Positions 1 through 45,822 of a stretch of DNA of 64,000 nucleotides are shown one piece after another. Source of the stretch: Rickettsiales bacterium (GTDB taxonomy: Bacteria; Pseudomonadota; Alphaproteobacteria; Rs-D84); contig JAITCH010000010.1 of assembly GCA_031283185.1 (NCBI GenBank), positions 63,237-127,236 of the forward strand, in the 5' to 3' direction. How positions within the stretch are numbered: position 1 is the first letter of the stretch; each line of letters opens with the position of its first letter. A program made the position numbers and the translations under genes. A model generated the notes under the pieces. That model made no database searches. It was given only the letters and a program-made list of their open reading frames with translations, and had not been told where the DNA came from.

Positions 1-2445
1 TTGGGAACGGTGTTGTCGAATTCCGAAGCGTCGCAGGATTATAGAGTTGTGCAGGACGAGGCGATAAGTGTTTGGTTTGAATTGGAAGACGGCCGGCGGA
101 TTATTGCCTGGACGACAACGCCTTGGACGCTTCCTGCGAACGAAGCATTGGCAGTGAATCCGAAAATGGAGTATGTGCAACTTCGTGCAGAGGACGGCAA
201 GAATTATGTAGTGGCAAAATCGCGTGCGGGCGCATACGAAAAACAACTCGGCACAAACATCACTGCGAATTTCACTGGCGATGCGCTGGTTGGAAAAAAG
301 TATAAGCCATTGTTTGCTTATTACAATGATGAAAAATTATATCACATTGCTGCGGGCGAATTTGTTTCCGACTCGGATGGAACGGGTATTGTGCATCTTG
401 CGCCTGCATTCGGAGAAGACGATTTTTGGACGCTGAAAAAGTCCGACCAACATTTTCCAGTTATTGTGAATGTTGATGACTTTGGCAATTTTACGGCGGA
501 AGTCCTGGGTTTTTCGGGAATGAATATTTTTGAAGCCAGTCCGAAAATAATTGAAAACCTGAAAAAATGCGGCAATCTTATCCGGCGCGAATCTTATTCG
601 CATTCGTATCCTTATGGTGATAGATCAAAGGAAAAACTGATTTATCGCGCGACTGATTCTTGGTATATAGATGTTCCAAAAATCCACGATGCGTTGTTGA
701 AAAATAACGAACAGGTTCGGTGGACAAGTGCAGGCGCGCGGTTTGCGGATTGGATAAAGAACGCGCGGCCGTGGAGCATATCGCGTAATCGTTTTTGGGG
801 CACGCCGCTGCCGATTTGGGAACGGGATGGCGAATATAAAATCTTTGGCAGCATTGCGGAAATTGAAAAGTTTTTTGACACGAAAATTGAAGACCTTCAT
901 CGCCCGACTTTGGACGCATTGGAAAAAGACGGCTGGCATCGCATCCCGGATGTTTTGGATTGTTGGGTGGAAAGCGGGTCAATGCCCTGGGCTTCATTGC
1001 ATTATCCGTTTGAGAATAAAGCGCGGTTTGATAAAGAATTCCCTGCGGATTATATTATCGAAGGGCAGGATCAAACGCGCGGTTGGTTTTATTCGCTGAT
1101 GGTGCTTGCGTCTGCATTGTTTTCAAAACCTGCGTTCAAGGCGGTTTCTGCGAACGGAATGGTCGTTGATGATAAAAAGAAAAAGTTATCCAAATCGGTG
1201 GGCAATTATTCTGATCCAATGGATTTGATAAATACTTATGGTGCGGACGCGGTGCGGCTTTATATCCTTGGGTCAAATTTCTTAAAGGCAGAGCCAGTCA
1301 GCATAGACCTGAAAGGATTGGTATTTTTAGAGCCGACTAAAACTATTCTTGTGCCGTTGTGGAACGCGTATCATTTCTTTACCCTTTACGCGAACGCTGG
1401 AAATATGACGGCCGGACGGGGTAGTGGTAATAATGTAATGGATAAATACATTTTATCCGAATTGAATGATTTGACGGCGGTTGCGAATGACTCGCTTGAA
1501 AATTATTCACCGGATTTGCTGACGCGTAAAGTTGTGGAATTCTTGGACATTCTGAATAATTGGTATGTGCGCTTGAACCGAGAAAGATTTTGGAATGAAG
1601 ACCAGGATGCGTTTAATACATTGTGGACGGCATTGTCGGATTTATGTCGGATTATCGCGCCTGTTGCGCCGTTTTTGGCGGAACATATTTTCCGCGCATT
1701 GAATAATGGCGCGTCTGTGCATTTGGAAAACTTCCCGACATATATAGAGAATAAAGAAACCGAAAGTCTAAGAACGATGCGGACGATTAGGGACATTGTG
1801 TCGGTTGGAAAAATGTTGCGCGAAAATGCGGGTCTTCGTAATCGCCTGCCATTGAACGAGTTGAAGATATATGGATATAAAGATTTTGATAATCACTTTA
1901 TTAAAATTATTGAAACCGAATTGAATGTTAAAAAAGTGTCGCCAATGGGAACGGATAGTTCATCGGTTGCGGAAAGTTTTGTGTATCTGATTACGCCGAA
2001 AATCGGCGCGCGCCTTGGGGCGAAGTTGAAAGAGATAATGTCCGCATCAAAACAGCCGAATTTCAATCCGGCGGAATTTGGATTGTTGCCGGACGAGTTT
2101 GAGATGCGTCTGAATGTTAAAGCGGGAATAACGGGCGCGGCATTGCCGGATAATACGGCGGTGGTGGTGCTTGATACCGATATAACGCCGGAATTGGTGG
2201 CCGAGGGCTTGGCGCGAGATGTCCTGCGTTTTGTGCAGGATACTCGTAAGGCTATGGATTTGGATGTGTCCGATAGAATAACTTTGGAATATGACGCGGA
2301 TGATGAATTGTCCGCCGCGATAGAGGCGCATTCGGTGATGATAAAGGAAAACGCATTGGCGACCGAACTTCGCCGCACGACTGGGCAGGGCGATTATTCC
2401 ACAGAAATAGAATCCCACAAAATTTCTATTAGGATTAATAAGTAA
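1..2445 (+). CDS. ileS: isoleucyl-tRNA synthetase, C-terminal ~814 aa (5' end outside window)
   Basis: The ORF runs in from the window edge. Class I aaRS features are present: TTTPWTLPAN, a KMSKS-like KKKLSKS and an IleRS-like C-terminal region. Confidence 0.9.
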   Translation: MGTVLSNSEASQDYRVVQDEAISVWFELEDGRRIIAWTTTPWTLPANEALAVNPKMEYVQLRAEDGKNYVVAKSRAGAYEKQLGTNITANFTGDALVGKKYKPLFAYYNDEKLYHIAAGEFVSDSDGTGIVHLAPAFGEDDFWTLKKSDQHFPVIVNVDDFGNFTAEVLGFSGMNIFEASPKIIENLKKCGNLIRRESYSHSYPYGDRSKEKLIYRATDSWYIDVPKIHDALLKNNEQVRWTSAGARFADWIKNARPWSISRNRFWGTPLPIWERDGEYKIFGSIAEIEKFFDTKIEDLHRPTLDALEKDGWHRIPDVLDCWVESGSMPWASLHYPFENKARFDKEFPADYIIEGQDQTRGWFYSLMVLASALFSKPAFKAVSANGMVVDDKKKKLSKSVGNYSDPMDLINTYGADAVRLYILGSNFLKAEPVSIDLKGLVFLEPTKTILVPLWNAYHFFTLYANAGNMTAGRGSGNNVMDKYILSELNDLTAVANDSLENYSPDLLTRKVVEFLDILNNWYVRLNRERFWNEDQDAFNTLWTALSDLCRIIAPVAPFLAEHIFRALNNGASVHLENFPTYIENKETESLRTMRTIRDIVSVGKMLRENAGLRNRLPLNELKIYGYKDFDNHFIKIIETELNVKKVSPMGTDSSSVAESFVYLITPKIGARLGAKLKEIMSASKQPNFNPAEFGLLPDEFEMRLNVKAGITGAALPDNTAVVVLDTDITPELVAEGLARDVLRFVQDTRKAMDLDVSDRITLEYDADDELSAAIEAHSVMIKENALATELRRTTGQGDYSTEIESHKISIRINK

Positions 2446-2460
2446 AAAACGGGTGATAAA

Positions 2461-2868
2461 ATGGAACAATTTTTACAAGGACAATTATTTGCGGCAATTA
2501 TAATTTTAATACTAACAACAATTCTGACATTTGTTTCTAGCTATTTTTTAGAACGACAGCGCGCTAAAAAAGAAATTCAGCAAAAACTATTAATCAAACG
2601 ACTAGAAACATATGAAACACTTATGGAACTGATAAAGAATTGGCGGAATTTGATTCGCAATAAAAAAGAAAATAATGATGAAATTATGAGAATAAAACAA
2701 ATTGCTATTGATATTGAATCAAAATGTCTTCTATATGCATCTCACGAAGTGTGTCAGGAATACTCTAGGTTGGTTAATTGTGCCATGGATCAAAAAATAT
2801 TTGAATCCCCTGACAAACTTACACAAATAATACGAAAAGAGATTGGCAACGACAATCTTCCAAGTTAA
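2461..2868 (+). CDS. hypothetical protein with an N-terminal TM helix and a coiled-coil-like region
   Basis: The ORF has an RBS-like GGGTGATAAA upstream and a hydrophobic N-terminus (AAIIILILTTILTFV). No domain is recognised. Confidence 0.4.
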   Translation: MEQFLQGQLFAAIIILILTTILTFVSSYFLERQRAKKEIQQKLLIKRLETYETLMELIKNWRNLIRNKKENNDEIMRIKQIAIDIESKCLLYASHEVCQEYSRLVNCAMDQKIFESPDKLTQIIRKEIGNDNLPS

Positions 2869-2897
2869 GTGCACTAAATTTTCCCGACTAGTTTTTA

Positions 2898-2970
2898 GCA
2901 GGTGGGGGTTTCCTGCCCCACACTCATCTCCCCTTGTCATTCCCGCGAAGGCGGGAATCTCAAATTGTTA
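2898..2970. repeat. composite repeat family B copy (degenerate G-rich hairpin + GTCATTCCCGCGAAGGCGGGAATCTCAAATTGTTA), overlapping the 3' end of the GIY-YIG gene
   Basis: Sequence match to 29117-29194 and 55347-55453. Confidence 0.75.
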
Positions 2971-3278
2971 ATTTCCGCTGTTATTCCGGGGCATATATCT
3001 TCGGACAAATCATTCCATTCGGGATTGCTTTCTATTACCAATCGCTGTTTCCAACTTTTATTCCATTTCTTCAACTGCTTTTCCCGCACAACGGCGTGTT
3101 CCATATCTCCTTGAACTTCATACCAAACCAACTTATCCAGGTTGTATCTGTCGGAATGGCTATCCTTGAAAAACCCCGTCTTGTGTTGGTAAACGCGATT
3201 AACCAGGTCGGAGGTTGATCCGATATAGGTTCTGCCCATCCAACAATTAGTCATAATATATACGCAAGGCTGTTTCAT
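2937..3278 (-). CDS. GIY-YIG nuclease family protein (YhbQ/UPF0213-like)
   Basis: Starts VYIMTN...GRTYIGSTSDLVNRVYQHK...KLVWYE, which fits the GIY-YIG core. The last ~10 codons (NNLRFPPSRE) are encoded by the repeat at 2936-2970. Confidence 0.7.
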   Translation of the reverse strand: MKQPCVYIMTNCWMGRTYIGSTSDLVNRVYQHKTGFFKDSHSDRYNLDKLVWYEVQGDMEHAVVREKQLKKWNKSWKQRLVIESNPEWNDLSEDICPGITAEINNLRFPPSRE

Positions 3279-3325
3279 AGGACAAGGCTATCAAATTTTA
3301 TAAGTCCGCATCAAAGGATTTTTTA

Positions 3326-3406
3326 CAATTTGAGATTCCCGCCTTCGCGGGAATGACGACACTTCGTGTCGTTTCTAGCGGGTGGGGGTCGGGAGATCCC
3401 CACCCG
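3326..3406. repeat. composite repeat family B copy in inverted orientation (CAATTTGAGATTCCCGCCTTCGCGGGAATGAC ... GCGGGTGGGGGTCGGGAGATCCCCACCCGC)
   Basis: Reverse complement of the family B consensus. Together with 2898-2970 it brackets the GIY-YIG gene. Confidence 0.75.
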
Positions 3407-3418
3407 CCAAATGGAAAT

Positions 3419-4087
3419 TTATTTTATTTTCTGCTGCCCGACCATTGCCATTAGATTGCGTCTGTCGTCATTATGTAATTCGGGTAAATCCGCACAGGTA
3501 TCGCGGATCAAAGTTTCGAAATATAATCTGTAAGTATCCGAATGTAATTTTTTAATTTTGTTCTTATTGAAATTCAATTCTCCGTTCCGCCGCCGCCGCG
3601 GATAATTTTCCAAATCTTCAATATCTTCCTGTGTTGATTCAATCTGTTCGTCTAGGCAGGCGTTGTGCATACGAATTTCGTAATCGTATGCATTCTTTGC
3701 GACTATTCCATCTGCGCCGACACGGACGATTTCATAGCAGACATCGCGTAAAATTACCGGCTTGATCTTAATTTGGATGCCGATGATCCCGGCTTTGCCC
3801 ATTTTAAGGATTGCATTTTCGAATTTTATATCTTCATCCATTATGTGGGATAGACATTTGGCGTCCTTTGTCCCGTTGGCGCAAAGCCCAAGGGCATTTT
3901 GGAAGATGTCGTTGTTTGATGGATAGTTTAGAAAGATATGTTGTGTTTCCGGGTCAAGTGATTTTAATCCGGCGCGTTCGTCAACGACGCTTTTTGACAT
4001 AGAGTAAATTTCTTGGATAATTTTTACAATTCGGACGGCTTTTAATTGGGTTCGGTTTTCCCAATAGTTTTTTGGCGGTTTGTTCAT
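3419..4087 (-). CDS. hypothetical protein (222 aa)
   Basis: Long ORF divergent from the small paralog pair. No domain is recognised. Confidence 0.45.
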   Translation of the reverse strand: MNKPPKNYWENRTQLKAVRIVKIIQEIYSMSKSVVDERAGLKSLDPETQHIFLNYPSNNDIFQNALGLCANGTKDAKCLSHIMDEDIKFENAILKMGKAGIIGIQIKIKPVILRDVCYEIVRVGADGIVAKNAYDYEIRMHNACLDEQIESTQEDIEDLENYPRRRRNGELNFNKNKIKKLHSDTYRLYFETLIRDTCADLPELHNDDRRNLMAMVGQQKIK

Positions 4088-4231
4088 TTGCGGCCTCTTT
4101 TCCTACACAATACAACCATAATTTAATTGTGTCAATAAATAAAATTCCTCAGCCTGGCATAGGTAAAAAATCCCATAGGATTTTCGTCAAAAATATGATA
4201 CAATGCTCGGTCAAATAAATAGGAATTACAA

Positions 4232-4444
4232 ATGGCACTTTTTGAACTTAATGGGTATTTGGTTGGGAATGACCAATACGGACACTTGAATGTAATAAGA
4301 AAACTTGAAGATGGCGAAAAGGAATGGTTGGGCAAAATGTGCCCGCCGCCACTGCCACAAGAGAATGTCGGCGCGGTATCGAAATTGCTGAATTTTTTAA
4401 GAAAGACTATAGCGGATGCTTCCCGTCAAAGGGCTGTGGCATAA
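4232..4444 (+). CDS. small hypothetical protein (70 aa), first of a tandem paralog pair
   Basis: The ORF starts MALFELNGYLV... and contains CPPP. A -10-like TACAAT lies upstream. Confidence 0.5.
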   Translation: MALFELNGYLVGNDQYGHLNVIRKLEDGEKEWLGKMCPPPLPQENVGAVSKLLNFLRKTIADASRQRAVA

Positions 4445-4456
4445 AGGAGAAAACTG

Positions 4457-4671
4457 ATGGCATTATTTGAGTTAAATGGATTTCTTGTCCATAATGATGA
4501 TTTTGGACAGATAAATGTAATAAGAAAACTGGATGAACAGGAAAAAGAGTGGCTCGGTGGGCTTTGTCCCCCCCCCCATTCGCTAGTGCAGCGGCGAGAT
4601 TAAATACAGAATTCCTGTTATATTTGCGGAATAGGGCGAATATAGATAGTCGGCAAAGGGCTGTGGCATAA
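4457..4671 (+). pseudogene. tandem paralog of 4232..4444, interrupted or phase-shifted at a poly-C(10) tract (present frame stops at 4603)
   Basis: An AAGGAGA RBS sits 7 nt upstream. The N-terminus MALFELNGFLVHNDDFGQINVIRKLDEQEKEWLGGLCPPP parallels copy 1. After the C10 tract (4568-4577), the +1 frame encodes ...NTEFLLYLRNRANIDSRQRAVA, homologous to the copy-1 C-terminus ...NFLRKTIADASRQRAVA. Confidence 0.6.
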
Positions 4672-4697
4672 TAATTGAATAAATTAACGAGGATAAA

Positions 4698-4895
4698 TTG
4701 ACTCTGAAAGAGATTCCTGGCGCATTGATTGCGGTGGATTGTTTGGGTAATGTTGATGTGCGTCATAAGGTGGATAACGAACATAAGTTTAAGCGGACGG
4801 ATGGGACGCATTCGTCCAGCAAGGTTTCGCATCCGACCCCGCTTGATGCGGCGTTGAGCATTTCTAATCTTGCCCATAAAACTATTGCGCGTTAG
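4698..4895 (+). CDS. small hypothetical ORF (65 aa, TTG start)
   Basis: GAGGATAAA precedes the TTG. A strong hairpin terminator follows at 4927-4965. No homology is recognised. Confidence 0.3.
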   Translation: MTLKEIPGALIAVDCLGNVDVRHKVDNEHKFKRTDGTHSSSKVSHPTPLDAALSISNLAHKTIAR

Positions 4896-4926
4896 CCTAA
4901 AAATAGTTGGCGCGACCGATACAACT

Positions 4927-4965
4927 GCCGGAAGGGGTCTCAGAATCCCTTCCGGCATATTTTAT
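4927..4965 (+). terminator. intrinsic terminator-like hairpin GCCGGAAGGGGTCTCAGAATCCCTTCCGGC followed by ATATTTTA
   Basis: A 9-bp GC-rich stem followed by a T-rich tract, read directly from the sequence. Confidence 0.5.
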
Positions 4966-5003
4966 CGGCATTATATTGGCACTATTCAACCCGTTATACA
5001 CGA

Positions 5004-5036
5004 TGTATATACAAAATGCACGCAAATGTATATACA
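5004..5036. promoter_or_regulatory. two copies of the perfect 10-bp palindrome TGTATATACA with starts 23 bp apart; candidate operator
   Basis: Read directly from the sequence. A TTGACC motif follows at 5044-5049. Confidence 0.35.
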
Positions 5037-5122
5037 GGGGGTGTTGACCCGGACATAAGGTTTTCTGTGGATTTTTATCCTTTGACAAATAATAAAAGTG
5101 GGTGGAAAAGTTATAAAAAGTT

Positions 5123-5249
5123 CTCCTCCATTGGAGGAGTCCCCCACGAAGTGGGGGGAGGTGGTTTAGCCACATTAAGGTAAGTAGTGCGGGGATATTT
5201 GGTTAAACCACCCCGCGCCTACGGCGCACCCCTCCACCGGAGGGGAATT
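5123..5249. repeat. composite structured repeat copy A: hairpin, hairpin, inverted-repeat core GGTGGTTTAGCCAC...GTGGTTAAACCACC, hairpin, hairpin
   Basis: CTCCTCCATTGGAGGAG, TCCCCCACGAAGTGGGGGGA, the core, CGCGCCTACGGCGCA and CCCCTCCACCGGAGGGG. The architecture is the same as the copy at 35317-35454. Confidence 0.8.
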
Positions 5250-5300
5250 GAGCCCTGAAATGGGCGGGATGGAAAACAGACCTTATGGGGTTTGTTCGGT

Positions 5301-7004
5301 TTATTTTGTCATTTTCAGGAATTTTTCGCTGCGTTTGGCGGGCAGGTCATCCGGCTTTTCTTTCGCCAAGGCATCCAACTCTGCGCCAATCGCCTTTGAT
5401 AGATTTTCCATTGTCGTCTGCCAATCCGTATGCGCGCCACCTTCCGGCTCTGCTACAACTTTATCAACAATGCCCAGCGATTTGGCATCCGCCGATGTCA
5501 ATTTTAACGCCTCGGCAGCCTCGGCCTTGAACTTATTGTCCTTCCAACAGATAGAAGCGCAGGATTCCGGCGCAATAACCGAATATACGGCATTTTCCAT
5601 CATCAGCACTCGGTCGCCTGTGGCGATGGCGATTGCCCCGCCGGATCCGCCTTCGCCGACAATGGCTGCGATGTATGGAGTTTTAACTGACAGCCCGACC
5701 TGGATGGAGTTTGCGATTGCTTGGGATTGTCCGCGTTCTTCGGCATCCTTGCCCGCGAATGCGCCCGCCGTATCCACAAGCGACACAATCGGCAGTCCGA
5801 ATTTTTCCGCCAGCATCATAAGCCGTGCGGCCTTGCGATAGCCCTCTGGCGTTGGCATTCCGAATCTGTGCTTGGTTCGCGTTGCCGCATCTCGGCCTTT
5901 TTCTTGCCCCATTATGACGACTGGGCGTCCGCCAAAATATCCGACCCCGCCGATCAATGCCAGGTCTTCGCCGAATTGTCTGTCTCCGGCGAGCGGGATG
6001 AATCCAGAAACCATTCCGTTGATATAGTCCAAAAAGTGTGGGCGGTTTTCGTTTCGCGCCAGCAGGACTTTTTGATAAGCCGGGGGCAGGTCGCTTGCCT
6101 TGGATTCCATTCCGCCGTGATTTGGCGTTGCGATATGCGCGGATTCCTTGTCGCCCTGCTGTTTCATAAGGATGCGTAGGATATTGCCAAGAGTGTCTTT
6201 CAGCGCATCGCGTTTGACGACTATGTCGACCATTCCGTGGTCAAGCAAAAATTCCGCGGTTTGGAAATTGGCGGGTAATTTTTCATGCAGGTTCTGTTCA
6301 ATGACGCGCCGTCCTGCGAATCCGATTCGCGCGCCGCTTTCAGCAATATGAATGTCGCCGATCATTGCAAAGGATGCCGTTACCCCGCCGTATGTCGGGT
6401 CGGCAAGCACGACTATATAAGGCAGCCGTGCATCGCGGAGTTTATTTATTGCGGCGGTGGTGCGTGCCATCTGCATAAGTGATAGTAAATTTTCTTGCAT
6501 TCTCGCGCCGCCGGAACTGGTTATCAATACGAAAGGCTGTTTATGTTTGATGGCGTGTTCTGCGGCGGCGATGATTCCTTCACCGACTGCGCGACCCATT
6601 GATCCGCCGATAAAGTCCATATTCATAACGGCGATGGTTGTTGGAATTCCGCCGACTTCGCCAGTTGCGGCGGCGAGGCCGTCCTTCATTCCAGTTTCAT
6701 CGCGCGCTTCGGACAGGCGGTCTTTATATGGTTTGATGTCGGTAAAGCCCAGCGGATCGTCAACCACGACCGGCATTGGGACGGCGGTAAAATCCAATCC
6801 GTCAAACATCATTTTGAATCGTTGCGGAGGCGTCATTCCGAATATATGTCCACATTTGGGGCATACGCGTAGATTTTTCTTATAGTCTTTATAGAATACT
6901 AATTTTCCGCAAAAGTCGCATTTAATCCACATAAATTTTTTTATGGATTCGTATTTATCATTTTTTTTGATTGGTTCGGCGTCGTTCTTTTTTTTCCAAA
7001 ACAT
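5301..7004 (-). CDS. accD-accA: acetyl-CoA carboxylase carboxyltransferase, fused beta (AccD, zinc finger CDFCGK...CPKCGH) and alpha (AccA) subunits
   Basis: A 567-aa ORF with an AccD N-terminal half and an AccA C-terminal half, both judged by similarity. Confidence 0.9.
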   Translation of the reverse strand: MFWKKKNDAEPIKKNDKYESIKKFMWIKCDFCGKLVFYKDYKKNLRVCPKCGHIFGMTPPQRFKMMFDGLDFTAVPMPVVVDDPLGFTDIKPYKDRLSEARDETGMKDGLAAATGEVGGIPTTIAVMNMDFIGGSMGRAVGEGIIAAAEHAIKHKQPFVLITSSGGARMQENLLSLMQMARTTAAINKLRDARLPYIVVLADPTYGGVTASFAMIGDIHIAESGARIGFAGRRVIEQNLHEKLPANFQTAEFLLDHGMVDIVVKRDALKDTLGNILRILMKQQGDKESAHIATPNHGGMESKASDLPPAYQKVLLARNENRPHFLDYINGMVSGFIPLAGDRQFGEDLALIGGVGYFGGRPVVIMGQEKGRDAATRTKHRFGMPTPEGYRKAARLMMLAEKFGLPIVSLVDTAGAFAGKDAEERGQSQAIANSIQVGLSVKTPYIAAIVGEGGSGGAIAIATGDRVLMMENAVYSVIAPESCASICWKDNKFKAEAAEALKLTSADAKSLGIVDKVVAEPEGGAHTDWQTTMENLSKAIGAELDALAKEKPDDLPAKRSEKFLKMTK

Positions 7005-10461: not shown

Positions 10462-10504
10462 ATTCCCCTCCAAGGTGGAGGGGTGCCCGAAGGGCGGGGT
10501 GGTT
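10462..10504. repeat. terminal half-copy of the composite repeat (AATTCCCCTCCAAGGTGGAGGGGTG + GC hairpin + GGGGTGGTT)
   Basis: Matches the ends of the copies at 5123-5249 and 35317-35454. Confidence 0.75.
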
Positions 10505-10529
10505 GAGTTTTGTAGAGAGAGAAAAACTC

Positions 10530-12395
10530 GTGAATATATTTCTAATTCTTATCGCATTCCTGCTTATGGCGGGATATTATTATATGGACTCGCCGTCATT
10601 GCGTGGCGCGGCGAAATCGTCAGAGGAAATTTTAGAAACTTCGGATGCGGCGGCGGCGGTTGCTTGTCTTGTGGCAGAGCATAATGCGGAATTAGAGGGG
10701 CTGGACGAAGGCGCGACCCGCCGCGCGAAAAATCCCTGTGCGGACAAGTTTAAGATAACATCGGCATCAGCGTGTTTTAATGATGGCGAGGTTTCGCGGT
10801 CTTGCCGTGCGGACGCGAATAATCCCGGATCAATGCAGCGGTTTGTCATATCCCGGTCGGAATGGGCTGGTTCGGAAATGTCCGGCAGCATAATGGAAAC
10901 ATTGCGGAAGAAATATAAAAATACATCCGGGCTGGGGATTGTTATGGCATCGGTTTCGGATGGCGATGAAGATGCTGGTATGACGATAATGTCGGCGGGT
11001 CGGAAACCCGTTGCGATTGATCCCGAACTTGTTCGGCTGGCAAAGTTGCAGGCCGGGGACTTGGCGTATATCTCGCATCATTCCGGGGATGAATTAGAGG
11101 CGCGTAATATAAAGAAGGAGGCCGAAACGATTTCTTGCGCCAAGGGCGAGGTCAAGGTTTTCCGCTTTCGTAATTGGCGGTGCGAGCAGCCGACCCCTGT
11201 AAAGGTTTGTCAGGGCGATACGGTTTATGACAGGGATTTGGATGAATGCGTAGATAATGTTGCGAATACGATAGTGTGCGGCGGGTCAGAGACGGCGGTG
11301 GTTATTGACGGGGTGTGGACTTGCCAGCCGCCCAAGGTTGCAAAGGAATGCCCAACTGGCAAAACGGCAAGTTTTGATTATGACGCGCTTGAATGGGTGT
11401 GCGTGGGCAATCCGGCAGCCGGTGATTTCAAGAAATGCGCTGGCGCATCAAATGCTGGTGCGAATTGTAGCGATTGTGAAGCGGCGGTTCAAGATGATGA
11501 AAGTTGCGAAATTTCGTGTATTCCGAACGCGGCGAAACTGACTTGGAAAAGTTGTTATCCCGATGTGGGCGAATGTAATGGCGGTGATGGAACCAAGGCG
11601 TTTTATTTCGGCTTTCCAAATGATGCGAGTTATAATGCGAGGGCGATGCAGTTGGTGGCGGGGCTTGCGGCGGCGGGGATTCCGCGGACGGATATGCATT
11701 CTGCGAACAGGAAATTTAATTGTTTGGATTGCGCGCCGTTCAAAGTAAGCACGGAAAATATTTTTGCTCCTTATATAGCGTCTTGTGTTTTCGAAGGGAC
11801 GCATTCTTCGGTGTGCGGCGCGAATTCGGTTTTTGTGCCGTCCCCGGTGGTTGGGGAAAACGGGCGATGCGAGAGTTTAGAATTGCGACCTGAATTGGTT
11901 CCGCCTTGCCCGAATGGATATGCGCGGGCGACATTAAGCGCGGCGTGTAGTCCGAAATGGTGCGGCGGGGATAACGGATCGGCGGGGGTATATTGCAGCA
12001 CCAGTCGGCAACTTATGGTTCTTGCGCCCGAAGGCTGTGCATATTGTATAAATCCTCGACCGGGTCAGGTTCCGATTGCCAGCGGGGTGGAGATTGATAT
12101 AAATAAGAATGCTGGGAATAACGGATATGCGGGCGGGGTCAAGGTTAGTTGGAGCGGTGAATACGGCTATGAGATTCCAGTTATTCCGCCAGAGTTGTCT
12201 GGGTTTAATTTGCTTGGTGGACGGCGTTTTGCAGACGAGAATATATTTGACGGCGGGCGGGTTATAAATCTGATGGATGCGATTGTTTGGGGCGACAAGA
12301 CGGGGATGCCTGTGCCGATGCCAGTTGCTGTTCCCCAAGGCAAGATTGAATGTGATATGACTGGCTCCCACTGCTCAGCCAATCAAAATCCATAG
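10530..12395 (+). CDS. large cysteine-rich protein with an N-terminal signal anchor (hypothetical; start uncertain, TTG 10503 or GTG 10530)
   Basis: A ~620-aa ORF with a hydrophobic N-terminus (VNIFLILIAFLLMAGYYY) and more than 40 Cys. No domain is recognised. Confidence 0.5.
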   Translation: MNIFLILIAFLLMAGYYYMDSPSLRGAAKSSEEILETSDAAAAVACLVAEHNAELEGLDEGATRRAKNPCADKFKITSASACFNDGEVSRSCRADANNPGSMQRFVISRSEWAGSEMSGSIMETLRKKYKNTSGLGIVMASVSDGDEDAGMTIMSAGRKPVAIDPELVRLAKLQAGDLAYISHHSGDELEARNIKKEAETISCAKGEVKVFRFRNWRCEQPTPVKVCQGDTVYDRDLDECVDNVANTIVCGGSETAVVIDGVWTCQPPKVAKECPTGKTASFDYDALEWVCVGNPAAGDFKKCAGASNAGANCSDCEAAVQDDESCEISCIPNAAKLTWKSCYPDVGECNGGDGTKAFYFGFPNDASYNARAMQLVAGLAAAGIPRTDMHSANRKFNCLDCAPFKVSTENIFAPYIASCVFEGTHSSVCGANSVFVPSPVVGENGRCESLELRPELVPPCPNGYARATLSAACSPKWCGGDNGSAGVYCSTSRQLMVLAPEGCAYCINPRPGQVPIASGVEIDINKNAGNNGYAGGVKVSWSGEYGYEIPVIPPELSGFNLLGGRRFADENIFDGGRVINLMDAIVWGDKTGMPVPMPVAVPQGKIECDMTGSHCSANQNP

Positions 12396-12422
12396 GGGTA
12401 GGGCGCGGGTAATTTCCCAACA

Positions 12423-13310
12423 CTAAACCCTTGAAAACTTGCTGCGAAGTTTGTGGCGCAAACTTTTACTTGGAATCGGCATTACAAATATATAAAGAAA
12501 GAAGTTGTATATTGCGTTCGCCAGAAATGTTTTATAAAATGGCGACATTTTCGCATATTTCCACCATATGCCTGACATTCTGGTCGGAAAAAACCAAGGC
12601 TTTTTCCCGGTGTAGTGGATAATACCGATTTCCTTGCCGCGTGCGCGGTCGCAGTGTATGCGAAAGTTGTATGTCGTATCGCCGTCATTGCACATTGCAA
12701 GTTTGCCTTTGAATGCGACACTCATAAGGCCTTGTTCGTATGACAGGTCTTTGTTTTTTAAGATTTCTGCAAATGATTCATAAACTTTGGATTCGCGGAT
12801 TAATTTCAGATTCAGTGCGACTACCCCTGCATTAAATTCGCAAATATCTTTATATGCGGATCGTCTTGCGGACAAATGAAATGCGTTGCCGACTGCAAAC
12901 GCTGCCATATAATTATCACCTAAATCTATATCCGCAAGTTCGTCCAATGGCTTCAATATGATTGTATCATCGTCCAAATGAATAACCCTGTCAATGTTGG
13001 GCAGCAAGCGGTATGAATCCATTTTGTAATAACAGATGCCGCCGCCAAAGGCCATATTTTTATTATAAGGTATGGATGCGTTTTTTTCATCAAAATCAAC
13101 GAACTCAATGGAAGACTCGGCATCTATTCCGGCTACAATTTCTGTCATTTGTTTTTGTGCATCTAAATTTCTGAAAAAATCCGCATTAACTATGCAATGA
13201 ATTGCATAATGTGAATCGCCCTTATTTTTCAATAGCGATATTATGGATACCAAGGTGGTTTTCCACCGCGTATTATCAAAAGTATAAGAGACATCAATAG
13301 TTTTTTTCAT
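12423..13310 (-). CDS. glycosyltransferase family 8 (LPS/LOS glycosyltransferase-like)
   Basis: A DxD motif (HLDDDTI) and the GT8 C-terminal motif IIHYTGKKPW. Confidence 0.8.
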   Translation of the reverse strand: MKKTIDVSYTFDNTRWKTTLVSIISLLKNKGDSHYAIHCIVNADFFRNLDAQKQMTEIVAGIDAESSIEFVDFDEKNASIPYNKNMAFGGGICYYKMDSYRLLPNIDRVIHLDDDTIILKPLDELADIDLGDNYMAAFAVGNAFHLSARRSAYKDICEFNAGVVALNLKLIRESKVYESFAEILKNKDLSYEQGLMSVAFKGKLAMCNDGDTTYNFRIHCDRARGKEIGIIHYTGKKPWFFPTRMSGIWWKYAKMSPFYKTFLANAIYNFFLYIFVMPIPSKSLRHKLRSKFSRV

Positions 13311-13421
13311 TGTCCGGGCATTATACTTTGTGTTCGGAATAAATCAATTGATTTTTTGACAAAGGGGGGTATAATTGTATTGTTCGGAGGGGGAACACAA
13401 CAGAAACCAAAGGGTTCTCGT

Positions 13422-14396
13422 ATGAACAATTTTCCATCATCCTTAGGCGCGCATTGCCGTGGCAAAGTCCGCGATACATTTAAAATTGAACGCGACAAGA
13501 TGCTGATTATCACCAGCGATCGCATTTCTGCATTTGATATTGTCTTGAATCCGGGCATTCCTGGCAAGGGAATTGTCTTGATGCAGATTTCCAATTTCTG
13601 GATGCAGCTGATGAATTTTCCGAATCATTTGATTGATACGGATATTGATTCTTTGGCAAAGGTTTATCCAGACCTTGCACAGTATAAAGAATATCTTCGT
13701 AATCGGATTGCGCTTGTGAAAAGGTTGGATATGCTTCCTGTTGAAGTTATTGTGCGCGGGTATCTGACAGGCTCGGCATTGAATGAATATAATGTCGAAA
13801 CGGGAATGTTGTTTGGACTTGATCATTATGTGGGCAAGAATCTGATCCCGCAAAGCAAATTGCCCGCACCGATTTATACGCCGACCACCAAGGCGGAACA
13901 GGGTCAGCACGACCAGCCTTTGTCGCGTTGTGATGCGGCGGATATTTGTGGGGCGTATGGGTTTTCTTCGGAAATATCTTATGAAGTAGAGGATGCGGCG
14001 ATTGATATGTTTGCATCCGCAAGCAATTATATGTTAAAGAATGGTTTGATTCTGGCGGACACCAAATATGAATTTGGAACGGATGAAAATGGCGTGTTGG
14101 TTTTGGGCGACGAAATTTTAACGCCGGATTCTTCGCGGTTTTGGGAATCGGACGATTATGAACGGGCGATACAGAATAATACTGCGCCGAAATCGTATGA
14201 TAAACAGCCTGTGCGCGATTACTTGACCGCGGAAAAAAAGGCTGGGCGTTGGGACGGAAAATCTCAGCCGACTTTGCCGGACGAAGTTGTGTCCGAAACC
14301 CGGTCGCGTTATATTGAAGCATATTTGAAAATTGCGGGCGAAGACTTTAATCCGTCAGCGACAATGCAGTTGTTAATGGGCGGGCGCGGTCGTTAA
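13422..14396 (+). CDS. purC: phosphoribosylaminoimidazole-succinocarboxamide synthase (SAICAR synthetase, long form)
   Basis: Starts KVRDTF...LIITSDRISAFD..., which is PurC-like. The start is chosen at the internal Met with an AAAGGG RBS. Confidence 0.85.
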   Translation: MNNFPSSLGAHCRGKVRDTFKIERDKMLIITSDRISAFDIVLNPGIPGKGIVLMQISNFWMQLMNFPNHLIDTDIDSLAKVYPDLAQYKEYLRNRIALVKRLDMLPVEVIVRGYLTGSALNEYNVETGMLFGLDHYVGKNLIPQSKLPAPIYTPTTKAEQGQHDQPLSRCDAADICGAYGFSSEISYEVEDAAIDMFASASNYMLKNGLILADTKYEFGTDENGVLVLGDEILTPDSSRFWESDDYERAIQNNTAPKSYDKQPVRDYLTAEKKAGRWDGKSQPTLPDEVVSETRSRYIEAYLKIAGEDFNPSATMQLLMGGRGR

Positions 14397-16231
14397 GCAG
14401 CGTCTGGTCGCCGCGCTTTTTTCCGCATATTTGGATCCAGGTCTTTTTTACGCAGGCGGATTATGTCCGGCGTTACCTCTACCAGTTCATCGTCTTGAAT
14501 ATATGATAATGCTTCTTCCAAAATAATTTTGCGTGGCGGTGCAAGGAATAGTTTTTCATCAGCCGTAACCGACCGCATATTGGTCAGTTCCTTGCCCTTG
14601 ACGGGGTTGACTTCCAGGTCGTTTTCTTTCGCGTGTTCACCGATAATCATTCCGTTATAAACCTGTGTGCCGTGTCCGATAAACAGAACTCCGCGCGGCT
14701 CTAAATTGTGAAGCGCGTATGTAACAGCCGTGCCGTTTTCCATTGAAACCAAGACGCCCGGGCGATAACTATCAATCGGCCCACGATAAGCATCAAAGCC
14801 CGAAAAGATTCGGTTCATAACGCCGGTGCCACGCGTGTCCGTGCGGAATTCTGATAAATATCCAATCATTCCGCGGCTGGGCGCAGAGAAGACGAGGCGG
14901 GTTTTTCCAACTCCGCTTGGTTTCATTTCGACCAGTGTTGCGCGCCGTTTGGAAAGTTTTTCTACGACCGCGCCGGAAAATTCATCATCAACATCAATGA
15001 CGATGTCTTCAATCGGTTCCAGCATATTTCCGTCTGCATCTTTTTGCATAATGACGCGCGGACGCGAAACGGATAATTCAAATCCTTCGCGCCGCATTGT
15101 TTCTATTAAAATGCCAAGTTGTAATTCGCCACGGCCGGAGACTTCAAAACTTTCATTGTTGGCGGATTGCGAAACGCGAAGGGCTATGTTGGTTTCTGCT
15201 TCCTTGAACAGCCGTTCGCCGATCATACGACTGGTCAGTTTTTTGCCGCCGGATTTTCCAGCCAGGGGCGAAGTGTTGACCGAGAAAGTCATTGATAATG
15301 TTGGCGGATCAATCGGCATTGCGGGGATTGGTTCTGAAACGCCGATGTCGCAAAGTGTGTCTGCCACCGTTGCCTTGGAAAATCCGGCGATGATGACTAT
15401 GTCGCCCGCGCTTGCGGATTCCAGGGATATTTTTTCTATTCCACGATGTTCAATTATTTTTGTAATTTTTGCGCGTTCAACGACTTCGCCTTTGGCGTTT
15501 ATTGCTTGCACTTGTTGGTTGACCTTGACCATTCCGGTTTCAATTCGGCCGGTTAGAATTCGCCCGACATACGGGTCGGCTTCCAGTGTGGTGGCCAGCA
15601 TTTTGAACGGGGCATTAGCATTGCATTGGTCTGCTCCGCGGCAGTCTGGCGCGGGCACATGGTCAACGATTAATTGGAATAGTGGTTCAAGTCCCTTGCG
15701 TTCATCATTCATATTGCGGACTGCCCAACCATCGCGTCCGACCGCATACATAAATGGAAAATCAAGTTGTGAATTTGTCGCGCCGAGTTTATCAAACAAA
15801 TCAAAAACTTCATTTAATACTTCATCCGGCCGAGCATCGCTTCTATCAACCTTATTTAGAATTACGATTGGATGCAGATTTAATTTTAATGCTTTGCCCA
15901 ACACAAATTTGGTTTGCGGCAGCGGACCTTCGGAAGAATCCACGAGCAGAACAACGCCGTCAACCATTGACAGGATTCGTTCAACTTCGCCGCCAAAGTC
16001 CGCGTGGCCTGGGGTGTCGATTATGTTGATTTTGTAGCCATTCCAAAGAATGGAAGTTGGCTTTGCGGAAATGGTTATACCGCGTTCGCGTTCCAAATCG
16101 CCGGAATCCATAACGCGTTCCGCGATTTTTTCATTCTCGCGGAATGTGCCTGCTTGGCGAAGCATATTGTCCACCAGTGTTGTTTTTCCATGATCGACAT
16201 GGGCGATAATTGCAATGTTTCTAATCTTCAT
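14393..16231 (-). CDS. typA: translational GTPase TypA/BipA
   Basis: G1 motif AHVDHGKTTL, DTPGHADF, and an EF-G-like domain architecture. Confidence 0.9.
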   Translation of the reverse strand: MKIRNIAIIAHVDHGKTTLVDNMLRQAGTFRENEKIAERVMDSGDLERERGITISAKPTSILWNGYKINIIDTPGHADFGGEVERILSMVDGVVLLVDSSEGPLPQTKFVLGKALKLNLHPIVILNKVDRSDARPDEVLNEVFDLFDKLGATNSQLDFPFMYAVGRDGWAVRNMNDERKGLEPLFQLIVDHVPAPDCRGADQCNANAPFKMLATTLEADPYVGRILTGRIETGMVKVNQQVQAINAKGEVVERAKITKIIEHRGIEKISLESASAGDIVIIAGFSKATVADTLCDIGVSEPIPAMPIDPPTLSMTFSVNTSPLAGKSGGKKLTSRMIGERLFKEAETNIALRVSQSANNESFEVSGRGELQLGILIETMRREGFELSVSRPRVIMQKDADGNMLEPIEDIVIDVDDEFSGAVVEKLSKRRATLVEMKPSGVGKTRLVFSAPSRGMIGYLSEFRTDTRGTGVMNRIFSGFDAYRGPIDSYRPGVLVSMENGTAVTYALHNLEPRGVLFIGHGTQVYNGMIIGEHAKENDLEVNPVKGKELTNMRSVTADEKLFLAPPRKIILEEALSYIQDDELVEVTPDIIRLRKKDLDPNMRKKARRPDAA

Positions 16232-16232
16232 T

Positions 16233-17510
16233 TTATTTTTTACCTATTGTTTTTCTTCCGTCCATAAGCGATTGTAATTTGACGGGAACATTTACGCTGC
16301 CGTCTTCGTTCTGATGATTTTCTATTACCGCGGCCAGCGACCGGGGCAATGCGATTGCGGTGTTATTAAGTGTCGCGCAGAAACGGACTTTGCCGGTTGC
16401 ATTTTCACGGAATCTGGTGTTGGTGCGCCGCGCTTGAAATTCGCCGATTGTGGAGCAACTGCCCAGTTCGCGGTATTTTTCTTGCGAAGGAAACCAAGCC
16501 TCCACATCGTCCATTTTGATTTTGTTGAAACCCATATCGCCGGTGCAGGTGGATAATATATGGTATGGCATTTCTAAATCTTCCATTATGCCGCCCAGGA
16601 ATCCCAAAAGTTCCGCGTGCATTTTTTCCGAATCTTCGGGCTTGCAGAAAATAAATTGTTCAACCTTGTGAAATTGATGTGCGCGCACCAGACCGCGAGT
16701 GTCTTTGCCCGCCGCGCCCGCTTCCTTGCGAAAGCAGGGTGAGTATCCTGCATATTTAATTGGAAGTTTATCTTCGGATAAAATTTCGCCGCGATGCATA
16801 GAGTTCAGAACGATTTCGGCAGTTCCGGCCAACGCCTTGTCCGGCGCGTTCAGATAAAATACATCATTGTCCATAATGGAAATATCTTTGCCCGGAAAAT
16901 GTCCCGCATCAAAAATCATTTGCGGTTTGACGATTGCGGGAACGGAGATATAAGTAAATCCCGCGGCGATCATTTTTTTAATTGCGTGCGTTTGAATTGC
17001 TAAATCCAGTTCTGCAATTTCGCCCATAAGGGTGTATGTGCGCGCGCCGGATATTTCGGAAATTTTTTCGCTTGCCCACCAGTTGTTCATATCCAGAATT
17101 TCCCAGTGCGGACGCGGGGTGAATGCGAATTTTTTTGGTGTGCCGATTGTGCGGACGACGACATTGCCGGAATCATCTTTGCCGATTGGCGAATTTGCAT
17201 CTGCAATCTGCGGAACGGATAAAAGTAGATTATTTAATTCTGATTCTGTGGCGTCTAATTCGGCTTGCAGCGAATTTATTTTCTCATTTAGATTTTTTGA
17301 TTCAGCGACCAGGGGTGCTTTGTCGGCGGCGGCAGCGACTTGACGGGAAAGTTCATTTTTGCGTGCGACCATATTTTCGGTTTCACATTTTAAGGCGCGA
17401 ACGCGTTCGTCCATTTTCAATATGGCATCAGTATCAACGCGATAGCCTTTGTTAATGGCATTTTGTTTTACCGAATCGGGATTGGTTCTGATTATGTTTA
17501 TATCTATCAT
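16233..17510 (-). CDS. serS: seryl-tRNA synthetase
   Basis: N-terminal coiled coil followed by class II motifs (FRKEAGAAGKDTRGLVRAHQF). Confidence 0.9.
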   Translation of the reverse strand: MIDINIIRTNPDSVKQNAINKGYRVDTDAILKMDERVRALKCETENMVARKNELSRQVAAAADKAPLVAESKNLNEKINSLQAELDATESELNNLLLSVPQIADANSPIGKDDSGNVVVRTIGTPKKFAFTPRPHWEILDMNNWWASEKISEISGARTYTLMGEIAELDLAIQTHAIKKMIAAGFTYISVPAIVKPQMIFDAGHFPGKDISIMDNDVFYLNAPDKALAGTAEIVLNSMHRGEILSEDKLPIKYAGYSPCFRKEAGAAGKDTRGLVRAHQFHKVEQFIFCKPEDSEKMHAELLGFLGGIMEDLEMPYHILSTCTGDMGFNKIKMDDVEAWFPSQEKYRELGSCSTIGEFQARRTNTRFRENATGKVRFCATLNNTAIALPRSLAAVIENHQNEDGSVNVPVKLQSLMDGRKTIGKK

Positions 17511-17663
17511 TAAGACCTCGTCATCCAGGCGAAGGCCGGGATATTTGTATGAATGTCTATTATACCCTCATTTTCCCAATTTTCAAGATTTTCTTGATTT
17601 ATTGTGCGTTTTAATATAAATTGTCTGCACGAAACCAAATAACTCCGTGGGGAGGTGATTTTA

Positions 17664-17870
17664 ATGGTCAAAGTTTTAGTGCGCGATAATAATGTAGAGC
17701 AGGCTCTGCGTGTGTCCAAGCGCAAGTCGCAAAAAGAAGGCCTGTTCCGCGAAATGCGCGAACGCGAAAGGTTCAAGAAACCGACTACGCGTAAGAAAGA
17801 AAAGCAGGGCGAAGCCGTGCGGCGCGAGAAAAAGCGTCAATCCAAGCAAAAAATGGTCTTTGGGTTTTAA
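17664..17870 (+). CDS. rpsU: 30S ribosomal protein S21
   Basis: [21 protein letters not shown]...[20 protein letters not shown] sits 8 nt upstream of the ATG at 17664. Confidence 0.85.
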
Positions 17871-17871
17871 T

Positions 17872-17901
17872 AAAAAATCCCCTCTAATAGAGGGGATTTT
17901 T
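17872..17901 (+). terminator. intrinsic terminator CCCCTCTAATAGAGGGG followed by a T-run
   Basis: Hairpin flanked by an A-run and a T-run, directly after rpsU. Confidence 0.7.
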
Positions 17902-17959
17902 CACTATTTGCACATCTGAATAAAATCTGATATAATTAATCCAACCAAAGGATAAGAAA

Positions 17960-18268: not shown

Positions 18269-18289
18269 AATTTATATTTCTATAAAATT

Positions 18290-18330
18290 TAGCGGGAAGG
18301 GATCTCCGAATCCCTTCCCGAACATTTTAA
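18290..18330. terminator. bidirectional terminator hairpin GGGAAGGGATCTCCGAATCCCTTCCC between convergent genes
   Basis: A 10-bp stem located between the 17960..18268 (+) ORF and trpS (-). Confidence 0.55.
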
Positions 18331-22839: not shown

Positions 22840-24204
22840 ATGAAAAGACTTATATCTATTTTATGTGCATTGACATTTATGACTTCTGCGGCGAATGCGC
22901 GGAATCAATATGGCGAATGGAGCCCTGTGGACGATGTCATTAATCATCCAGATTTTGATAATGGTGATTTAAGCGATGAAGCGGCGAATGCGATAAACGC
23001 GGACGAACAGGATGATAAGAACAAGACGGCGTTTCCTGCGGGCTTGCAGTTCGGCGCGGGACTTACGATTATGCCCGGACATAACTGGTTTATTGGATAT
23101 GCGAACAAGGATTTTGAGAGTTTTTGGTGGAAAAGAATCGGCGGCAGGCTGGACTTTACGACCCCGATGTCATTGTCGGCCAGTGCGACCATTCACGACA
23201 AAATCGGGGGGGGGTATGAAGTTGATCCGCACGCGCAGATATGGTTCAAGAAATTTGATTTTGATAAACAAACAATCAAAGAAGACTTTGACCTTGATGA
23301 CGAAACGATCAGTCTTAATGGGTCGAATGCAAAGTTCTTTATGAAGCATAAGAATTTTGGCGCATTGATGGATATTTATCCGTTTGGAAATACTTGGTTC
23401 CTAGGCGGGCTCAGGTTGTCCGGCGGATATTATATGGGCGAATTGATGGCGGATTTTCATACGGATATTCCGTTGGATATTCCGGCACAGGGATTCAAGC
23501 AGCCAATCGGGGCGAATGATGAACTAAGATTCAGAATCCGTAATGGTTCCAAATTTGGAACGACTATTAATTGGAAATATAATGGACCTTATGTTGGATT
23601 GGGTTTTGATTTGGGTTTGTTGTGGGGCGCGAAAATTTATATGGACGCGGGCGCGGTATATACTAAGCCGTTGAAAGTATCTAACAAAAGCCTTATTGAT
23701 GACAAGAACATTTATGTGGACAGCTGTTTCAGAATAGGGGCATCAGGGGCTTGTGAATGGACACAATTATTTGCCGGGATGACTACGCCGAATGTTGACC
23801 AGATTGTTCAGGGTGTTTTAAGCGGGGTTATTGATGCAAAGATACAGACATATTTGACCGGCGATCAACTCATAATTCCTGGCGCAGGCACTTATACTTT
23901 GACTACTGATCAACAAGCAACCATTGGGCAAGACATTACTTACTGGTTATTGAACGGAACGAATGCGAATACTCCTGCGTGGATTACACAACTTACTGAA
24001 ACAAATGCCGATATTGCGAATACAATGAATCAGATTCGAACCGAGGTTGTTGATGACGCGCATAGCGATATTCAGTCTAAAATTGACGAGATTTGGGGCG
24101 ATTACGAGCAGCAAAAGTTGGATGCGGTTAATGATATAAATGATAGTGTGAAAGACTTCCGCATTATGCCTATGATAAAACTGGGCTTTATGTATAGATT
24201 TTAA
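22840..24204 (+). CDS. hypothetical outer-membrane/secreted protein (454 aa), probably a beta-barrel (C-terminal ...GFMYRF)
   Basis: Signal peptide MKRLISILCALTFMTSAANA, and a C-terminal aromatic residue. It contains a G9 tract at 23206-23214. Confidence 0.55.
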   Translation: MKRLISILCALTFMTSAANARNQYGEWSPVDDVINHPDFDNGDLSDEAANAINADEQDDKNKTAFPAGLQFGAGLTIMPGHNWFIGYANKDFESFWWKRIGGRLDFTTPMSLSASATIHDKIGGGYEVDPHAQIWFKKFDFDKQTIKEDFDLDDETISLNGSNAKFFMKHKNFGALMDIYPFGNTWFLGGLRLSGGYYMGELMADFHTDIPLDIPAQGFKQPIGANDELRFRIRNGSKFGTTINWKYNGPYVGLGFDLGLLWGAKIYMDAGAVYTKPLKVSNKSLIDDKNIYVDSCFRIGASGACEWTQLFAGMTTPNVDQIVQGVLSGVIDAKIQTYLTGDQLIIPGAGTYTLTTDQQATIGQDITYWLLNGTNANTPAWITQLTETNADIANTMNQIRTEVVDDAHSDIQSKIDEIWGDYEQQKLDAVNDINDSVKDFRIMPMIKLGFMYRF

Positions 24205-45465: not shown

Positions 45466-45822
45466 TTAAAACTCCATCAACCTCACTTGCCCGGGGTTGT
45501 ATTGGGACGGCGGAGTGCTGAAAAGCCAATACATTCCAACGAGGAATACTGCACTGACGCCGATGGCAATTACGGCATTATCTTTAATCCAACTGCTTTT
45601 TTGTGATTTGGGTTTATATGCTGTTGTTTGAGGGCAGTAGTAAATGTCCCCATTTTTTTCGGAGCATTGAACATAATTGGTTAGTGGAGTATTACATTGA
45701 ACTTTGTCTGGCTGTTGACCCGGCGCGGTGGGAACCATGCAGTAATTAACGGCATTTGCAGGGGGGGGCGTGAACACCGATATAAGTCCGAAAACCGATA
45801 AAATTGCTAATAATTTCTTCAT
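45466..45822 (-). CDS. small exported Cys-containing protein with a C-terminal TM segment (118 aa)
   Basis: Signal peptide MKKLLAILSVFGLISVFT. It contains the G8/C8 tract at 45762-45769, which encodes PPP. Confidence 0.45.
   Translation of the reverse strand: MKKLLAILSVFGLISVFTPPPANAVNYCMVPTAPGQQPDKVQCNTPLTNYVQCSEKNGDIYYCPQTTAYKPKSQKSSWIKDNAVIAIGVSAVFLVGMYWLFSTPPSQYNPGQVRLMEF

Follow-up and report, generated by a model that had tools for sequence, protein, structure and literature searches.

The subject of this report is a tandem of small-protein genes in a stretch of 64,000 nucleotides (hereafter, the window) from contig JAITCH010000010.1 of GCA_031283185.1, a metagenome-assembled genome (MAG) of a Rickettsiales bacterium. 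The second gene of the tandem (copy 2) departs from the frame of its upstream paralog (copy 1) at a run of ten cytosines (C10), and the presence of such a tract at the frame break exceeds chance expectation. According to the explanation favoured here, which is advanced tentatively, copy 2 may be subject to a reversible slipped-strand switch of the simple sequence repeat (SSR) type, and would now be in its short state. The support for a maintained slippery tract points modestly that way.

The C10 tract and the frame break in copy 2

Copy 1 (4232..4444, plus strand; NCBI LBB23_03070) encodes an intact protein of 70 residues and is preceded by an AGGA ribosome-binding site (4222-4225). The Shine–Dalgarno sequence of copy 2, AAGGAGA (4444..4450, plus strand), overlaps the stop codon of copy 1 and is the best of the operon, with the ATG at 4457 standing seven nucleotides past AAGGAG (4444-4449). 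As assembled, copy 2 (4457..4603, plus strand; LBB23_03075, MDR2685727.1) is truncated to 48 residues by a stop codon at 4601-4603. The coordinates, sequences and frames of both copies, re-read from the sequence, are as first described in an earlier note on this DNA. The tract itself (4568..4577, plus strand) comprises exactly ten bases, more than any other homopolymer of the window, and marks the exact point at which the two paralogs part in frame. In silico, the addition of one C or the removal of two restores a product of 71 or 70 residues, respectively, that ends in SRQRAVA at a stop codon in 4669-4671. Copy 1 and copy 2 in its restored form share 57% identity (blastp, 4e-25), and the paralogy of the two genes, also proposed in the earlier note, is confirmed.

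Two features by which phase-variable genes are recognized—a G/C homopolymer of at least about eight bases in an open reading frame (ORF) or promoter, and a frame that switches with the number of repeats—are found in copy 2, the former as the C10 tract and the latter in silico. The predicted products fall into a long class (70, 71, and 72 residues for C8, C11, and C14) and a short class of 42–49 residues (42, 48, 43, and 49 for C9, C10, C12, and C13). The short product of C10 ends in ...CPPPHSLVQRRD, while the junction peptide of the long form is CPPPPFASAAAR, the form of 71 residues spanning a PPPPFASA junction. Up to the stop codon at 4669-4671, copy 2 measures 215 nucleotides versus 213 for copy 1, and this excess of two nucleotides is the excess of the tract; because of this, a C8 version would be exactly co-linear with copy 1.

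The tract lies in a conserved CPPP motif, encoded as TGC CCG CCG CCA (then CTG) in copy 1, and as TGT CCC CCC CCA (then TTC) in copy 2 at C8. CCC, the rarest proline codon (15.6%), is thus used in the motif of copy 2 and avoided in that of copy 1; it is absent from the PPP of copy 1 and from one of the three other PPP tripeptides of the window genes, among which CCC codons are strung into a long C run only in copy 2 and in an ORF of 118 residues. In Markov simulations, the probability of any G/C run of at least ten bases was 0.05-0.11, and the 1.11 Mb of alphaproteobacterial loci used for comparison contain a single run of that length.

Both copies are real plus-strand genes, and purifying selection acts on their N-terminal domain. 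In the first 40 codons, the proportions of nonsynonymous (pN) and synonymous (pS) differences between copies 1 and 2 are 0.22 and 0.80, the latter saturated, and the differences are distributed 10/5/25 over codon positions 1/2/3. Since synonymous sites are saturated, the duplication must be old. An antisense ORF of 183 residues (4407..4958, minus strand), in which the tract would be read as GGG, was also considered; it is ruled out by the third-position bias of the substitutions in the plus-strand frame (10/5/25), and is further contradicted by the plus-strand ribosome-binding sites and terminator.

Downstream of the tract, the −1 frame of copy 2 (4579..4671, plus strand) encodes a tail, FASAAARLNTEFLLYLRNRANIDSRQRAVA followed by the stop codon, that is read only with C8, C11 or C14. 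This frame is open for 31 codons, while the other two frames hold two to three stops each, and a hydrophobic pattern is conserved between the tails of the two copies (LLNFLR and FLLYLR). The open frame, the equivalent stop, a length that shows no net indel apart from the tract, and the hydrophobic pattern all speak in favour of a tail that was once coding. As the frame, the stop and the net length have all been preserved despite the age of the duplication, the break must be either recent or reversible.

Proposed slipped-strand mispairing and long G/C tracts in the clade

In the proposed mechanism, the conserved CPPP motif of the middle copy of the operon, encoded as a pure C run, would change its length through slipped-strand mispairing during replication. 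Tracts of C8, C11 or C14 would give the full protein with its SRQRAVA end, whereas C10 and C9 would give short forms that retain the predicted β domain and drop the predicted helix. The assembled sequence would then represent a "short/OFF" state, one insertion away from "long/ON", and a minority of other tract lengths would probably be present in the population; such a mixture of lengths would argue for a reversible switch. Copy 1, with its non-slippery motif, would stay constitutive. The stop codon of copy 2 would lie 26 nucleotides (long form) or 94 nucleotides (short form) upstream of the weak TTG start of the third gene of the operon (copy 3), the translation of which may change as a result. 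The reversibility of the switch, the heterogeneity of the population, the selective value and the effect on copy 3 are all inferred.

Whether selected or not, a C10 tract would be expected to be unstable. In Campylobacter jejuni, tracts of G8 to G11 are highly mutable, with a modal length of nine, and lengthening that of cj1139 from G8 to G11 increased mutability tenfold (PMC3401435). The classic signature of slipped-strand phase variation that the earlier note had seen in this locus therefore stands as regards tract type and length, which are hypermutable in C. jejuni (PMC3401435), and as regards the toggling of the frame in silico, but the homology of the tail proves narrower than had been claimed. 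Nothing emerged from literature searches on phase variation in Rickettsiales, on phase-variable repeats in MAGs or on the sequencing run.

The closest known systems are the poly-G/C contingency loci of C. jejuni (such as cj1139, with G8, and cj0031, with G9), Neisseria, Haemophilus, and Helicobacter, which share with copy 2 a tract of 8–11 bases within an ORF, the toggling between full-length and truncated products through a change of one base, and, apparently, an excess of such tracts in the genome and the clade (PMC3401435). However, copy 2 differs from C. jejuni-type loci in several respects. It is a cytosolic-looking ORFan of 70 residues, and not a surface-structure or restriction-modification gene; its tract arose in a conserved Pro-Pro-Pro motif, and the OFF state would retain the N-terminal domain. 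Furthermore, it belongs to an uncultured alphaproteobacterium, the closest relatives of which are MAGs from termite guts.

These relatives were identified through their fused AccD-AccA protein (about 75% identity), and are the MAGs Coa324_bin6, Emb289P3bin18 (locus L003), and Cyl330_bin36 (locus L004); Emb289 features in the literature on MAGs from the gut of higher termites (PMC7024585). The window and the three closest relatives, which together make up 129 kb, hold seven G/C runs of at least nine bases, versus three in the 1.11 Mb of 71 other alphaproteobacterial loci, an excess of about 20-fold for which a Poisson probability of about 1e-7 was estimated here. From base composition alone, about 45 such runs would be expected in the 1.11 Mb. 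This clade-level excess suggests that long G/C tracts are being maintained.

Apart from C10, two further G/C runs of at least eight bases occur in the window, and all three lie inside lineage-specific ORFs. The first is an in-frame G9 (GGG GGG GGG; 23206..23214, plus strand) in an ORF of 454 residues (22840..24204), and the second an in-frame C8 (CCC CCC CC; 45761..45768, minus strand) in the N-terminal region of the ORF of 118 residues mentioned above (45466..45822, minus strand). Both ORFs have, by eye, a signal-peptide-like N-terminus, and neither matches a Pfam family. The homolog of the latter in Cyl330_bin36 (35% identity) lacks the tract. Gly-Gly-Gly in the other window genes is mostly encoded as GGC GGC GGN and never as a pure G run, the sole G9 being that of the 454-residue ORF. 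G9 and C8 are candidates for further slippage switches.

Homopolymers in promoter spacers are known to act as switches for porA and opc of N. meningitidis and for fim of Bordetella pertussis. A similar arrangement is found in Emb289P3bin18, where both G9 runs are located between −35-like and −10-like hexamers, in the 18-nucleotide spacers of sigma-70-like promoter-like sites (TTGACA-aaatgaaat-G9-TAGACT at 20554-20583 and TTGACT-tatatttga-G9-TAGGAT at 20846-20875). This likeness, however, belongs to those loci, while the C10 of the window is intragenic. One of the two sites is 5' of an ORF of 87 residues, and the other 5' of a truncated ORF, MSYAIEVKNLSKYF..., which by eye resembles the N-terminus of an ABC-transporter ATPase. 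In Cyl330_bin36, a G9 on the minus strand (6480-6488) is found 10 nucleotides upstream of the ATG of an ORF of roughly 640 residues, and runs of C13 and C14 (11912-11924 and 15177-15190) form the arms of intergenic hairpins of the CTCCCCCC-TTGC-GGGGGGAG type.

A broader proposal, considered improbable, is that the organism of the window and its closest relatives would run a genome-wide poly-G/C contingency system, comprising intragenic CCC/GGG tracts in lineage-specific small or secreted proteins and G9 tracts in promoter spacers, in which the helix of copy 2 would be reversibly added or removed and thereby alter the make-up of a complex of these single β-meander proteins. The excess of long G/C runs across the clade, promoter spacers included, is the more general and more interesting lead. 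As for copy 2, if its tract varies, the classic phase variation by homopolymers, so far known in only a few cultured pathogens, would be extended to uncultured alphaproteobacteria with termite-gut relatives, and a comparison of ON and OFF populations could reveal the role of a protein family without relatives. If, on the contrary, the tract is fixed, the locus would be of little interest, either as a redundant paralog that broke recently within a variable interval or as a miscount of the consensus.

Weighing the switch against other explanations

Several observations weigh against a reversible switch. The locus is known from one sample only, both of its assemblies carry C10, and no variation in tract length is on record. 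An exact look-up in 15 billion proteins retrieved neither the products of C7–C9 and C11–C14 nor the out-of-frame tail ORF, a result that is uninformative with one sample. No orthologs turned up in the searches described below, so that conservation of tract or tail across strains lends the switch no support. The similarity of the copy 2 tail to copy 1 rests wholly on its last seven residues, since the alignment score falls from 37 (shuffle P = 0.001) with SRQRAVA to 15 (P = 0.53) without it; the homology of the restored C-terminus, as put forward in the earlier note, is thus sustained for this terminal segment and not for the remainder. For the tail, the ratio of nonsynonymous to synonymous substitution rates (dN/dS) does not fall clearly under 1 (pN 0.51, pS 0.69). 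In addition, the terminal residues fall within a shared block of 18 nucleotides that may reflect gene conversion or a nucleotide-level constraint instead of selection on the protein. The products of the family have no signal peptide, unlike those of classic surface-antigen contingency genes. Finally, three runs of at least eight bases are unremarkable for the window (Markov P 0.08-0.24), and in the relatives most long tracts form the arms of hairpins between genes and do not lie inside genes.

The lack of recorded length variation, together with the narrow homology of the tail, makes a recent dead-end pseudogene a serious alternative, though a less probable one than the switch. In this case, a slippage mutation, of the kind also invoked for the switch, would have been fixed in a redundant middle paralog, with no switching, no regulatory role and with a tail bound to decay. 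Copies 1 and 3 would provide the redundancy, and a C10 that is two steps away from the co-linear C8 fits drift after inactivation. A tail with dN/dS near 1 and with no similarity to copy 1 in its middle part, the failure to find any other tract length among the 15 billion proteins, and the location in a variable, ORFan-rich interval beside a mobile-looking GIY-YIG cassette are likewise in keeping with this view. However, the tail frame is still open, with its equivalent stop and no further indel, the Shine–Dalgarno sequence and the start codon of copy 2 are intact, and no other split gene is apparent in the ORF map of the 64 kb. Moreover, C10 is physically unstable, so that reversion would be expected regardless of selection (PMC3401435), and the clade excess of long G/C tracts suggests maintenance.

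It is quite unlikely that the frame break is a sequencing or assembly artefact, in which the true or dominant genotype would be C11 or C8, and the consensus would miscount the run or collapse a mixture. Long G/C homopolymers are error-prone in short-read chemistry, and the MAG derives from a single sample. Nevertheless, the Logan assembly of SRR14710906 yielded a contig of 1819 bp (L001; window 3332..5150) that is 100% identical to the window, C10 included. The two assemblies were made with different assemblers, possibly from the same reads, and because they may share reads a miscount of the consensus could still account for the break. Elsewhere in the window, G9, G8, A8, and T8 runs stand in frame within long ORFs, including intact T8 runs within accDA. 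The window is 89% coding, its conserved genes are uninterrupted, and its ORF map holds no other obviously split gene, although no homology search for broken genes was carried out. Taken together, the in-frame runs, the coding density and the unbroken ORF map make a systematic homopolymer error unlikely.

Somewhat less probable again is a recoding at the level of expression, in which the DNA would be stably C10 and a slippage of the RNA polymerase, or a −1 slip of the ribosome on C CCC CCC, would yield some of the 71-residue protein. The downstream frame is −1 with respect to the start, a homopolymer would permit perfect re-pairing of tRNA-Pro, and a GGUGG motif located 6 nucleotides upstream of the tract might contribute. 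Precedents are the poly(A) tracts of Buchnera and Blochmannia and tssM of Citrobacter rodentium (PMC4256274), where a gene broken at a homopolymer has an open downstream frame from which both short and long products are possible; in the endosymbionts and in tssM, slippage of transcription on A/T runs is reported to rescue the frame. Unlike copy 2, those cases involve A/T runs—not C—and are accompanied by expression data, while the C run examined here has no significant stimulatory structure. No significant RNA structure was detected downstream of the tract (z −0.96 and +0.57). A programmed −1 ribosomal frameshift is not supported: the tract does provide a slippery run, yet the sequence after it folds no better than its shuffles. 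Neither copy 1 nor copy 3 contains a slippery site, so that frameshifting is not a trait of the family.

The 18-nucleotide block introduced above, CAAAGGGCTGTGGCATAA, forms the 3' end of copy 1 (4427..4444, plus strand), where it encodes QRAVA and the stop codon, and closes the tail of copy 2 with the same letters (4654..4671, plus strand); there is no third copy in the window. Its identity, despite saturated synonymous sites elsewhere, could be due to gene conversion, to selection on codons or RNA, or to a functional C-terminal tag. With regard to the last, the idea of a degron prompted by the terminal AVA could be compared with no tag, since the window holds no tmRNA gene. The block also underlies the least probable of the explanations considered, which is very doubtful: copy 2 would natively encode 48 residues, and 18–21 nucleotides (4651-4671) would be kept by a constraint on the nucleotides themselves, for example as an element before the start of the next gene. 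This would agree with the loss of tail similarity once the terminal block is removed, with an identity at every synonymous site (versus about half of the conserved codons elsewhere), and with the position of both blocks just upstream of the ribosome-binding site of the next gene. On the other hand, the block is in frame with the open stretch of 31 codons, whose junction with the N-terminal part falls exactly on the tract; tract aside, copies 1 and 2 have the same net length, and no other gene is preceded by a third block.

The protein family, its operon and the ileS–accDA interval

While the mechanism proposed for copy 2 would be another example of a well-known kind, and a poly-C frameshift will not surprise a specialist, the gene family is new. 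The search for homologs of the 70-residue protein and their context that the earlier note had suggested led to a family confined to this locus. Word-indexed protein searches with copy 1, copy 3, and a neighbouring ORF of 222 residues returned only the query itself, and a profile search with HMMER across 1.84 billion representatives retrieved the three window genes, one borderline LGFP-repeat protein and nothing else. Scans of genomes, metagenomes and viral contigs, tblastn against phages and blastn against plasmids found no relatives of the operon family. No significant profile match was obtained for the family in Pfam, NCBIfam, PHROGs, or PADLOC (in Pfam, none for any of the three copies at E up to 1), family searches with the 222-residue neighbour gave no hits, and Rfam returned sub-threshold matches only, all of them outside the operon. 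As judged from these searches, the family formed by copies 1, 2, and 3 would be new, lineage-specific and present in one uncultured gut bacterium only.

According to a model built with AlphaFold2 (AF2) from a small alignment, of moderate reliability (predicted local distance difference test, pLDDT, 72.5), four antiparallel strands (3-36) are followed by a PPP linker and a helix (46-69). Each protein of the family is thus predicted to hold a four-strand β-meander domain, a proline-rich linker and a variable C-terminal helix. Foldseek searches with this model gave only matches to single propeller-blade-like elements, with E values of 0.27 or worse. The small β-sheet-plus-helix phage proteins Xp10 P7 and AcrIF24 (N-terminal part) share with the model a simple topology at 5–8% identity, which offers no evidence of homology. 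A further likeness is that to the LGFP repeat (Pfam PF08310), as a β-hairpin of 11 residues, NGYLVGNDQYG, resembles the NGYIVGNDKYG that recurs in one LGFP-repeat protein. However, even with a threshold of E = 1, PF08310 matches none of the three copies, and the resemblance, which covers part of one repeat, is one of motif level only.

Copy 3 (4698..4895, plus strand; LBB23_03080), a distant paralog of 65 residues, has a TTG start and a GAGGA ribosome-binding site (4689-4693). Its alignment with the other two copies covers their N-terminal domain, with 29% identity (pairwise E 1e-3), and its C-terminal half is also divergent, the C-terminal half of the family being very variable. A candidate extended −10 element, TG-a-TACAAT (4196..4204, plus strand), may be read before copy 1; the promoter scan did not report it because there is no good −35 hexamer at that position. 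At the other end, an intrinsic-terminator-like hairpin (4926..4957, plus strand) of 13 pairs, eight of them G-C, is followed by a T-rich tail. The third paralog, this hairpin and the extended −10 element lead to the prediction that copies 1–3 form a three-gene operon, divergent from the 222-residue ORFan LBB23_03065 (3419..4087, minus strand), which has a promoter-like site TTGACA-17-TATTGT at 4135..4107. An AF2 model of this neighbour from its single sequence was unusable (pLDDT 34). In the NCBI annotation of this "Rickettsiales bacterium" MAG, LBB23_03065 to LBB23_03080 are hypothetical proteins, and the 48-residue product of copy 2 is listed as a protein.

The operon is located between ileS and accDA, in an interval of 2.9 kb (2445-5301). 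Among the relatives, ileS was also recovered in L002 and L004, where the interval measures 8.2 kb (11698-19918) and 4.3 kb (11695-15975), respectively. Neither the operon nor the 222-residue ORF has homologs in loci L002–L005, and the three closest relatives hold unrelated genes at this position. The ORF translations suggest that among these are a cluster of the fimbrial usher type, in L002, and genes resembling those of dihydroorotate dehydrogenase and PAP2. The unrelated content of the interval across relatives indicates that it is a variable hotspot and that the operon is lineage-specific. AccD and AccA, the β and α subunits of the acetyl-CoA carboxylase carboxyltransferase, are apparently fused in an ORF of 567 residues (5301-7004, minus strand), as suggested by its translation and by other loci that match only its first or second half; L002–L005 carry the fusion at full length too. 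Farther along the window, two ORFs of 630 and 780 residues (10503-12395 and 35523-37865, both on the plus strand) have no Pfam match with an E value of 0.001 or lower.

Adjoining the operon, a GIY-YIG ORF (2937..3278, minus strand; PF01541, 3e-13) lies between inverted repeats of 36 nucleotides (2936-2971 and 3322-3357) that are 97% complementary, an arrangement that looks like a small mobile cassette. The 21-nucleotide core of these repeats, TCCCGCCTTCGCGGGAATGAC, recurs exactly at 55409-55429 (minus strand), and with three mismatches at 29151-29171 (minus strand). The right repeat is overlapped by an Rfam match to FtrB (3291-3372, minus strand) that, with 34 bits, stays below the gathering score of 66 and is probably a chance match, and the break of the Logan contig at 3332 falls inside the repeat. 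On the 3' side of the operon, a G/C-rich palindrome cluster (5120-5250) comprises CTCCTCCATTGGAGGAG and an imperfect inverted repeat of 23 nucleotides (5153-5175/5197-5219); the end of the Logan contig at 5150 suggests that this region is a repeated sequence.

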